60,989 nt of DNA, from the NCBI GenBank assembly GCA_947245515.1, contig CAMXQV010000005.1, forward strand, positions 1-60,989, written 5' to 3'. This stretch comes from an uncultured Clostridium sp. (GTDB lineage: Bacteria > Bacillota > Clostridia > TANB77 > CAG-508). Made by a program: the position numbers and the translations under genes. The notes under the pieces are model-generated. The model did no database searches. It saw nothing but the letters and a program-made list of their open reading frames with translations, and was not told where the DNA came from. Numbering within the stretch: the stretch's first letter is position 1; every line of letters starts with the position of its first letter. Shown here in pieces: positions 29,164-29,593 of this stretch.

Positions 29164-29250
29164 AGGTTTCTCCTGTATTTGTATGAAATATCTTTTAAAT
29201 CTCTTCTTTGTTAAGATATTATCATACCGCTTTAGTTTTTACAAGAAAAA

Positions 29251-29497
29251 TAAAGCAATCGCTTAAAATTTTAATTATTTATTTGTTTGTATTTAATTAA
29301 GAATAGCGCGAGAAGGATTATAATTATTTATTTTTGAGTGACTCCGGGGTAACCGTTCCAAAATTCTTAGAAAAGTTAGAAAACTTTTCTATAGAATTTT
29401 GAGAATGGGGCAACGAAAATAATAAATAATTATAATCCTTTGGGAGCGAGTAGATTTTATAAATACAAATAAATAATTAAAATTTTAAGCGATTGCC
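29251..29497. repeat. Long palindromic repeat family B, copy 2, flanked by a 12-bp direct repeat
   Basis: Outer arms AGCAATCGCTTAAAATTTTAATTATTTATTTGT.. and their complement. Same conserved core as 16290-16549. TTACAAGAAAAA occurs at 29239-29250 and 29498-29509. Confidence 0.85.
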
Positions 29498-29593
29498 TTA
29501 CAAGAAAAAAACAGAATTACTGTAAACCATTTAAGTTTAAAAGCTTATCAAAGTAAATAAAAAAACTTAAAAATAATAAAATTATATGGACAA

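Follow-up and report, generated by a model that had tools for sequence, protein, structure and literature searches.

Several families of small repeats are known in bacteria, such as Correia/CREE in Neisseria, ERIC/IRU in enterobacteria, RUP in pneumococcus and MITEAba12 in Acinetobacter. They are non-coding and multi-copy, carry terminal inverted repeats and target-site duplications (TSDs), lie in intergenic regions, occur in long and short variants and fold into long hairpins. MITEAba12 is described as duplicating 9 bp of its target (PMC6382973). Here, we analyzed a window of 60,989 nucleotides (contig CAMXQV010000005.1 of the uncultured Clostridium sp. assembly GCA_947245515.1, positions 1 to 60,989) and found an element at 29251-29500 that shares all of these properties, including the 9-bp duplication. 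[quoted passage not shown] It alone has a base-exact register with the -35 box of a predicted promoter, and its interior has conserved non-palindromic loops with covariation across species. Taken as a whole, it is probably a non-autonomous cut-and-paste MITE of uncultured low-GC gut Clostridia whose insertion is aimed at sigma-A type promoters.

The initial annotation of this DNA had noticed two palindromic copies and listed a non-autonomous mobile element among the possible explanations. We searched the whole source genome (G000; 1.84 Mb, 26% GC, 87 contigs, of which the window is contig C5) by BLAST and nhmmer. The raw counts include matches of the palindrome on both strands, and the dozens of matches amount to some 25 copies, about 16 of them full (about 250 bp each) and 7 short, besides fragments. 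The short copies, about 185 bp long, are without the 65 bp between two TTTTGAG repeats. One full copy, C7:2781-3030, is virtually identical to the window element (100% in one comparison, 99.6% over 255 nt in another). Terminal inverted repeats of about 35 bp (TAAGGCAATCGCTTAAAATTTTAAT...) were found at both ends of copies in four genomes, namely G000, G041 (MGBC161478, of a mouse-gut MAG lineage, the same species as the window genome, with flank identity of 97-99%), and G042 and G043, which are further species carrying the element. The alignment of copies with their flanks placed the element ends at TAAGGCAATCGC... and ...GCGATTGCCTTA.

A 12-bp repeat, TTACAAGAAAAA, had been reported on both sides of the window element as a possible TSD. 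The repeat is indeed present on both sides; its length as a TSD was not upheld, because the alignment of many copies showed that the right-hand TTA belongs to the terminal repeat (...GCCTTA). The true TSD is the 9-mer CAAGAAAAA, and the length of 9 bp was also fixed by an empty site. The flanking 9-mers are direct repeats that vary by site (for example, CAAGAAAAA, CAAGATTTT, GTATACTTG, ATTTATTTG, AATATATTG, CAATAAATA). Among 44 non-redundant sites in the four genomes, 22 had duplications with two or fewer mismatches in 9 bp, and 13 of these were perfect; short copies, which have no central module, still have TSDs. In G041, locus L115 is filled, with CAAAATAAT on both sides, whereas G000 has the single 9-mer and no element at about 82.4 kb of C1. 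On C13 of G041 we found a footprint, AATATATTG-CCTTA-AATATATTG, where G000 holds a 185-bp copy (C16:27353); the footprint is read as an almost exact excision between ATTG repeats. The suggestion of a mobile element agrees with the multiple copies, their terminal inverted repeats, the TSDs of fixed length, the filled/empty pair and the footprint, and we regard a MITE with a 9-bp duplication as very well supported.

The features that relate the window element to its downstream gene are as follows.

29242-29250, unstranded: left TSD copy, CAAGAAAAA, identical to 29501-29509
29501-29509, unstranded: right TSD copy, CAAGAAAAA
29216-29244, minus strand: predicted promoter of the downstream gene, with -35 TTGTAA (29239-29244), a spacer of 17 nt and -10 TAATAT (29216-29221)
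27751-29163, minus strand: downstream gene, 470 aa, with its start codon (29163) 87 nt from the element

Between the -35 box and the element, which ends at 29251 on this side, there are 6 nt. On the minus strand the left TSD reads TTTTTCTTG, and its TTG opens the -35 box of the downstream gene. The 470-aa protein is read as ABC-type from a Walker-A-like GSGKTT motif.

The same register holds for every well-preserved copy of the family. TTG (CAA on the other strand) was present at one end of 20 of the 22 TSDs. When the sites were oriented with TTG at the 3' end, the following three bases completed a -35-like hexamer, which was TTGAAA at six sites, TTGACT at three, TTGCAA at three and TTGACA at two, with others at the rest. 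With a spacer of exactly 17 nt, the motif TAnnnT follows in 16 of the 20 promoter-side flanks, in 0 of the 20 far-side flanks and at 7.8% of random intergenic TTGs (n = 11,431). For spacers of 16-18 nt, the corresponding values were 19/20, 3/20 and 17.5% (n = 11,431). The difference between near and far flanks was significant (Fisher P = 4 × 10−7), as was that from the background (binomial P ~ 1 × 10−14), and in an initial set of 24 flanks, chosen less strictly, the value was 23. TATAAT proper was found at 6 of the 16 sites with a spacer of 17, and was commoner once spacers of 16 and 18 were counted. The two TSDs without TTG end in TAG and TTT, and their register was unchanged (TAGACA-17-TATAAT and TTTACT-17-TATAAT). 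Therefore, the promoter, and not the trinucleotide, seems to be what matters.

The register was observed in three species (G000/G041, G042 and G043). The TSD consists of the six bases upstream of the -35 hexamer and the first three bases of the hexamer itself, usually TTG. Thus the predicted promoter is left intact, the element abuts it at about -42, and a second TTG stands at the far end. In most cases a ribosome-binding site and a start codon come next, 60-90 nt or less from the element. The downstream genes have housekeeping functions unrelated to one another and include prfA, rnc, adk, miaB, mreB, tsaE, murI, an htrA-like gene and response regulators, as identified by reading translations and not by Pfam. 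The orientation of the core relative to the flanking genes was about 10:5, which was not significant, and no orientation was fixed relative to the promoter.

In the family alignment, the window element is one copy of about 250 bp, and the list of open reading frames (ORFs) has none of 60 aa or more inside 29251-29500, so the 250 bp are non-coding. Two types of copies were distinguished. Type A has GCGAG boxes and, in three species, also the TAAGGCAATCGC terminal repeats; type B has the core hairpin alone, with other arms. The parts of the window element, apart from its TSDs, are the following.

29251-29285, plus strand: left terminal inverted repeat, TAAAGCAATCGCTTAAAATTTTAATTATTTATTTG, common to copies in G000, G041, G042 and G043
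29303-29316, plus strand: box A1, ATAGCGCGAGAAGG, non-palindromic and conserved in type A copies
29313-29335, plus strand: left AU-rich inner arm, which pairs with 29416-29441 and covaries between copies
29339-29403, plus strand: central module of 65 bp, missing from short copies and bounded by TTTTGAG direct repeats at 29332-29338 and 29397-29403
29340-29354, plus strand: box B1, GACTCCGGGGTAACC
29355-29406, plus strand: apical hairpin, GUUCC-AAAAUUCU-..-GAAAAG / CUUUUC-..-AGAAUUUU-G(A)GAAU
29407-29415, plus strand: box B2, GGGGCAACG
29416-29441, plus strand: right AU-rich inner arm, assigned in the covariation test
29442-29453, plus strand: box A2, GGGAGCGAGTAG, oriented like box A1
29466-29500, minus strand: right terminal inverted repeat, CAAATAAATAATTAAAATTTTAAGCGATTGCCTTA

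The four GC-rich boxes had been described earlier as non-palindromic loops in one orientation, and all four were indeed located on one strand. The CUCC of box B1 is able to pair with the GGGG of box B2, and GGGGUAACC then remains as an asymmetric bulge or mini-hairpin. The AC dinucleotide of box B2 and the GU of GAGUG (29336-29340) form a covarying 2-bp helix. Within the element, the plus strand has a weak promoter candidate at 29297-29324, TTAAGA-16-TATAAT (10/12 matches), which is directed toward the core; its TATAAT is kept in type A copies and its -35 part is not.

We tested a hand-built structure of the core on an alignment of 66 distinct cores from about 10 species. The covariation score was 0.259, compared with 0.115 for shuffles (0 of 500 reached the observed value) and about 0.05 for slid partners. 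The fraction of paired cells was 93.7%. Changes on both sides were found in 26 of 50 pairs, and in helix 2, formed by the AU-rich inner arms, in 19 of 24 pairs, where the cores are related and the counts of changes are not independent events. In the window, the inner arms are compensatory, as noted from the beginning (GGATTATAATTA/TAATTATAATCC in the element at 29251-29500 and GGTTTCTAATTA/TAATTAGAAACC in the other copy). The 2-bp helix, GA-[GU]-GA on the left with CA-[AC]-GA on the right, occurs in the forms GU/AC, AC/GU, GC/GC, GC/GU, AU/GU and AU/AU. Its pair 55:137 is GC in 32, AU in 18 and GU in 4 cores, and its pair 56:136 is UA in 36, CG in 21 and UG in 2. The conserved 5'-GA/5'-GA around this helix could form tandem G-A pairs. 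In the apical hairpin, pairs 75:127 (UA/CG) and 79:124 (AU/CG) covary.

In helix 3 (YUYC against the invariant GGGG), the sole variation is C to U. On the plus strand this change, opposite an invariant G, keeps a G-U pair, whereas it would leave an A-C mismatch on the opposite strand. Four conserved G-U positions point the same way, and both favour folding of the plus strand, as RNA or single-stranded DNA. The folding z-score of the core was -8.6 against shuffles. The plus strand also had the lower free energy in 66 of 66 copies, which we do not count as evidence for a strand preference. The interior long hairpin most likely would act as a single-stranded structure of the plus strand, in RNA or DNA; candidate roles are binding of the transposase or a host factor, or a small RNA, and a part in transposition as a cofactor, in RNA or single-stranded DNA form, is conceivable. 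The arms of a palindrome can also stay matched by hairpin-templated repair, with no selection needed, and this process would also account for the private self-complementary outer arms of the other copy in the window.

For type B copies, the automatic palindrome boundaries stopped at the internal loop. The small ACUC/GGGU hairpin proposed by RNAalifold was dropped, as it requires a 2-nt loop. Rfam gave no match at the gathering score in the 61-kb window and, at a permissive threshold (E up to 10), only chance-level matches with E of at least 0.5 in 29150-29700. In G042, the left loop of several copies (L057, L074, L076, L077, L080, L085, L109, L119) reads AACGGTT-CCGGGGT-AACCGTT. A perfect 7-bp local hairpin could form within it and rival the pairing of CCGTTC with the right arm, and an alternative fold is possible.

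How the element chooses its site can be considered from the shape of its target. When a transposase acts as a symmetric dimer, the consensus of its targets is normally symmetric as well. The present consensus is one-sided, with a -10 box co-occurring 17 bp away, so that symmetric contacts between transposase and DNA would be insufficient alone, and recognition of the promoter as a unit is probable. The unit may be read through contact with sigma-A or RNA polymerase, or by a sigma-region-4-like domain of the transposase. We only tentatively propose that the transposase itself reads the sigma-A promoter, either docked to sigma region 4 or to RNA polymerase, or equipped with its own sigma-like -35 reader, and cuts at a fixed distance. 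That the choice of promoters works via the transcription machinery is likewise no more than a speculative suggestion. Landing just upstream of promoters would offer a "safe haven" in a compact genome.

Selection after insertion could produce a similar picture. Insertion might need only TTG in AT-rich DNA, and selection would later leave copies beside -35 boxes, for example as insulators or substitutes for UP elements. Every element that we see is a survivor, TTG is the strongest single feature of the TSDs, and a long hairpin could block read-through from upstream genes. However, 82-92% of intergenic TTGs are without a properly spaced -10 box. Insertion there should do no more harm, yet such sites are hardly used by copies with intact TSDs, of which 19 of 20 are at promoters. 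Moreover, the register is exact to the base, which survival alone does not give, and it is kept at the two sites without TTG (TAGACA and TTTACT). Promoters are also where we find the copies that vary between strains with as little as 1-3% divergence. We thus consider selection alone an improbable explanation, and it is quite likely, judging from the predicted promoters, that insertion is truly promoter-directed. A second alternative is that the repeat is a dispersed structured-RNA gene, small RNA or cis-acting RNA, with functional loops and stems and with transposition as a secondary matter. The strong covariation argues for it, including a 2-bp helix with five pair types beside the conserved 5'-GA/5'-GA, as do the C-to-U changes tolerated on the plus strand alone, the candidate internal promoter at 29297-29324, and a core that is about 80-90% conserved in about 10 species of metagenome-assembled genomes (MAGs) while the arms change. 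Yet this explanation seems unlikely to us: Rfam has no match up to E 10, copies without the central module still have TSDs, the fold z-score is the same on both strands, and promoter-like matches are only about twice the shuffle expectation. The orientation of the core is not fixed relative to neighbouring genes or the adjacent promoter, and the element is upstream of that promoter and hence outside the transcript of the gene. For the core by itself, the structured RNA or cruciform listed in the initial annotation keeps some probability, as covariation is strong and the wobble pairs favour the plus strand.

A repeat of the repetitive extragenic palindromic (REP) or REPIN kind, which a RAYT or an IS200/IS605-type Y1 (HUH) transposase would move in the form of single-stranded DNA, would explain the long imperfect palindrome with its GTAG-containing box (GCGAGTAG) and the wobble pattern, which fits a hairpin of single-stranded DNA. 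Y1_Tnp-like ORFs are present in G000 (C43 and C61), G041, G043 and G016 (UMGS1423). HUH enzymes such as those of IS200/IS605 and the RAYTs make no fixed TSDs and no 35-bp terminal inverted repeats, whereas the element has 9-bp TSDs and such repeats. In addition, G042 gave no Y1_Tnp match, despite its many copies of the element, and at the C43 locus the only terminal-repeat-like match on the contig is weak and about 7 kb from the Y1_Tnp gene. The REP-like reading listed in the initial annotation is therefore not sustained, and we hold it to be very improbable. A MITE inserted at promoters remains the reading that we prefer.

Several observations weigh against this preference. The promoters are predicted from sequence alone, and the window promoter, TTGTAA-17-TAATAT, was missed by a simple consensus scan (8/12, with a threshold of 9). 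The flanks were decayed or non-matching at 22 of the 44 sites. Type B cores occur in other species without these terminal repeats, and two copies in G016, whose flanks were read by eye, had no clear duplication or promoter register. Two short copies, C17:7163-7348 and C11:32572-32756, are flanked by inverted and not direct 9-mers, of which the left one reads CAA... and the right one ...TTG; those of C17 (CAAGAATAT / TTATTCTTG) are complementary at 8 of 9 positions. Both copies have consensus-like promoters facing outward on both sides, and the sequence beside the C17 copy differs between G000 and G041, where L118 joins C17 to C1 sequence. One possible cause is that two copies inserted at back-to-back promoters and then recombined with each other; another is a symmetrisation of the flanks driven by the palindrome. 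The energy preference for the plus strand is at least partly an effect of composition, because the z-scores of the two strands are equal (-8.6 and -8.8). Finally, the 9-bp staggered cut would be made by a DDE transposase supplied in trans, a step deduced from the anatomy of the element, and an autonomous insertion sequence (IS) with matching ends was not found in the four genomes or in plasmid, phage and IMG/VR collections.

No pairs of terminal repeats 0.7-3.5 kb apart were found in G000, G041, G042 or G043, and 20 regions beside unpaired repeats contained truncated copies and ordinary genes only. Every assembly here is a fragmented MAG, and as such assemblies often lack IS copies, absence from them is weak evidence. 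ISLre2-family transposases make 9-bp duplications. Transposases of this family (UPF0236) were found in all four MITE-bearing genomes; of 40 relatives, 9 that lack the MITE have them as well. An ISLre2-family IS was rejected as the parent, as the end of the IS in G041 and G043, ATATGAGTTAAATAATCTGGGG, is unrelated to the MITE ends, and DDE_Tnp_1 loci were rejected because their ends are not similar. An intact ISLre2-family (UPF0236) transposase ORF of 494 aa is present at C58:3068-4177 of G000. A different ISLre2 element is common to G041 (L135, C75) and G043 (L136, C91) with 92.7% nucleotide identity, which suggests recent horizontal transfer. The Y1_Tnp (IS200/RAYT-like) ORFs of G000 are at C43:1874-2209 and C61:4760-5086 and 7417-7775; they have about 250-275 aa and weak Pfam scores.

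We also investigated the host range and the length forms of the family. In an exact-pattern scan of one genome per prokaryotic species, matches were confined, chance matches aside, to low-GC gut MAGs labelled uncultured Clostridia or Clostridium. The carriers include MGBC161478, MGBC153658, SRR15730524_bin.83, UMGS1423, UMGS1516, Clostridium sp. 28_17, CAG:575, Hadza MAGs and HGM13651. Among 40 relatives, the core was present in only G016. No further genome with the element was found among 300 across the family, in a shallow DNA search in which two candidates were scored per genome; this is a weak negative.

The element decays by deletion between short direct repeats in its arms, which gives 185-bp and 36-bp derivatives and near-precise excision footprints. 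The 36-bp minimal palindromes are the two tips joined (C13 and C21, with two weaker matches on C75 and C87 of G000). At least three loci are short in G000 and full in G041 (C8:18367, C11:32572 and C15:33204); C17:7163 also seems to be so, but the locus is rearranged. This switch between strains indicates rapid loss or regain of the central module, which is what slippage across a hairpin would be expected to cause. Several of the fragments in G000 are at contig ends and contigs break inside copies, so the repeat evidently broke the assembly there. In G041, a second, unrelated MITE of about 105 bp lies inside the left arm of one copy (L131, C142:3850-4620). It has the ends GTTGCAGTTCAGTATATAGC / GCCATATACTGAACTATAAC and an 8-bp duplication, TATTTATT, and is missing from the orthologous copy of G000 (C15:15004).

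The other copy in the window, copy 1, has the following features.

16290-16549, plus strand: copy 1, an older diverged member of the family, with its core at 16338-16499
16290-16326 and 16513-16549: private 37-bp outer inverted repeat of copy 1, 97% self-complementary

The two window copies are both intergenic and upstream of minus-strand genes, and they share the core, as first noted, with 83-85% identity over the central ~215 nt. Their outer arms had been called self-complementary and completely different. The former is correct for each copy; the latter is too strong, as the arms of copy 1 distantly resemble the family terminal repeat by eye (GCAA..GCTT....TAATTATTT). The outer arms of copy 1 were found nowhere else in its own genome. 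Its left flanking 9-mer, CAACTATCG, starts with CAA, and the duplication is degenerate (5/9). An ortholog of copy 1 is present in G041 (L048).

Beyond the window element, a hairpin, AAGCGTGGACA...TGTCCACGCTT, is present at 29587-29638, followed by a T-rich run on the minus strand. It resembles a terminator that would serve the upstream gene (29680-30681, minus strand) and was not called by a simple terminator scan; if it is one, the MITE lies between a terminator and the next promoter. Elsewhere in G000, self-BLAST showed a tandem array at C8:33488-37027, with a period of about 700 bp and 90-96% identity over about 3.5 kb.

These results have several consequences. The element gives a base-by-base map of predicted promoters for the housekeeping genes of uncultured gut Clostridia. 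It replaces the UP-element region of many essential genes with a 250-bp hairpin, which may alter or insulate their expression, and there are many points at which MAG assemblies break because of it. As a structure, the core hairpin is conserved, well supported and outside any known family. If insertion is promoter-targeted, the transposase must find promoters of loose consensus, and a sigma factor or RNA polymerase may be involved. If the reading of insertion steered by transcription is true, this would be the first promoter-targeting transposon described in bacteria.

The -35-box insertion register is a new feature that sets the element apart from known MITEs. The section on insertion preference in a 2024 review of prokaryotic MITEs gives only intergenic and 3' untranslated region locations and clustering, and no preference for -35 boxes (PMC10969869). 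Our full-text literature searches gave no report of -35-directed insertion in bacteria. Recurring functional targets at which genes are spared are known for other bacterial elements, such as Tn7 (attTn7), IS1397/ISKpn1 and ISPpu9 (REP sequences) and class C group II introns (after terminators). For IS elements, insertion in REPs is described in two reports (PMC1525189, PMC12288879). In contrast to all of these, the target of the present element is a promoter unit of -35 and -10 boxes, whose sequences differ by site, and its mechanism with a 9-bp duplication is unlike that of IS110-type elements and introns.

By analogy, the element can also be compared with yeast retroelements, which show promoter-proximal integration too. 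In function, its nearest known counterparts are Tn7-type and REP-targeting elements among bacteria and Ty3/Tf1 among yeasts. Ty3 and Ty1 (at Pol III genes) and Tf1 (at Pol II promoters) integrate a short fixed distance upstream, which is commonly read as a safe-haven strategy in compact genomes. However, these are eukaryotic long terminal repeat retrotransposons with unrelated enzymology, and tethering to the transcription machinery has been demonstrated for them, whereas for the present element it is only inferred. If the -35 register reflects the choice of target, the element would be a bacterial counterpart of the promoter-proximal "safe haven" integration of these yeast retroelements.

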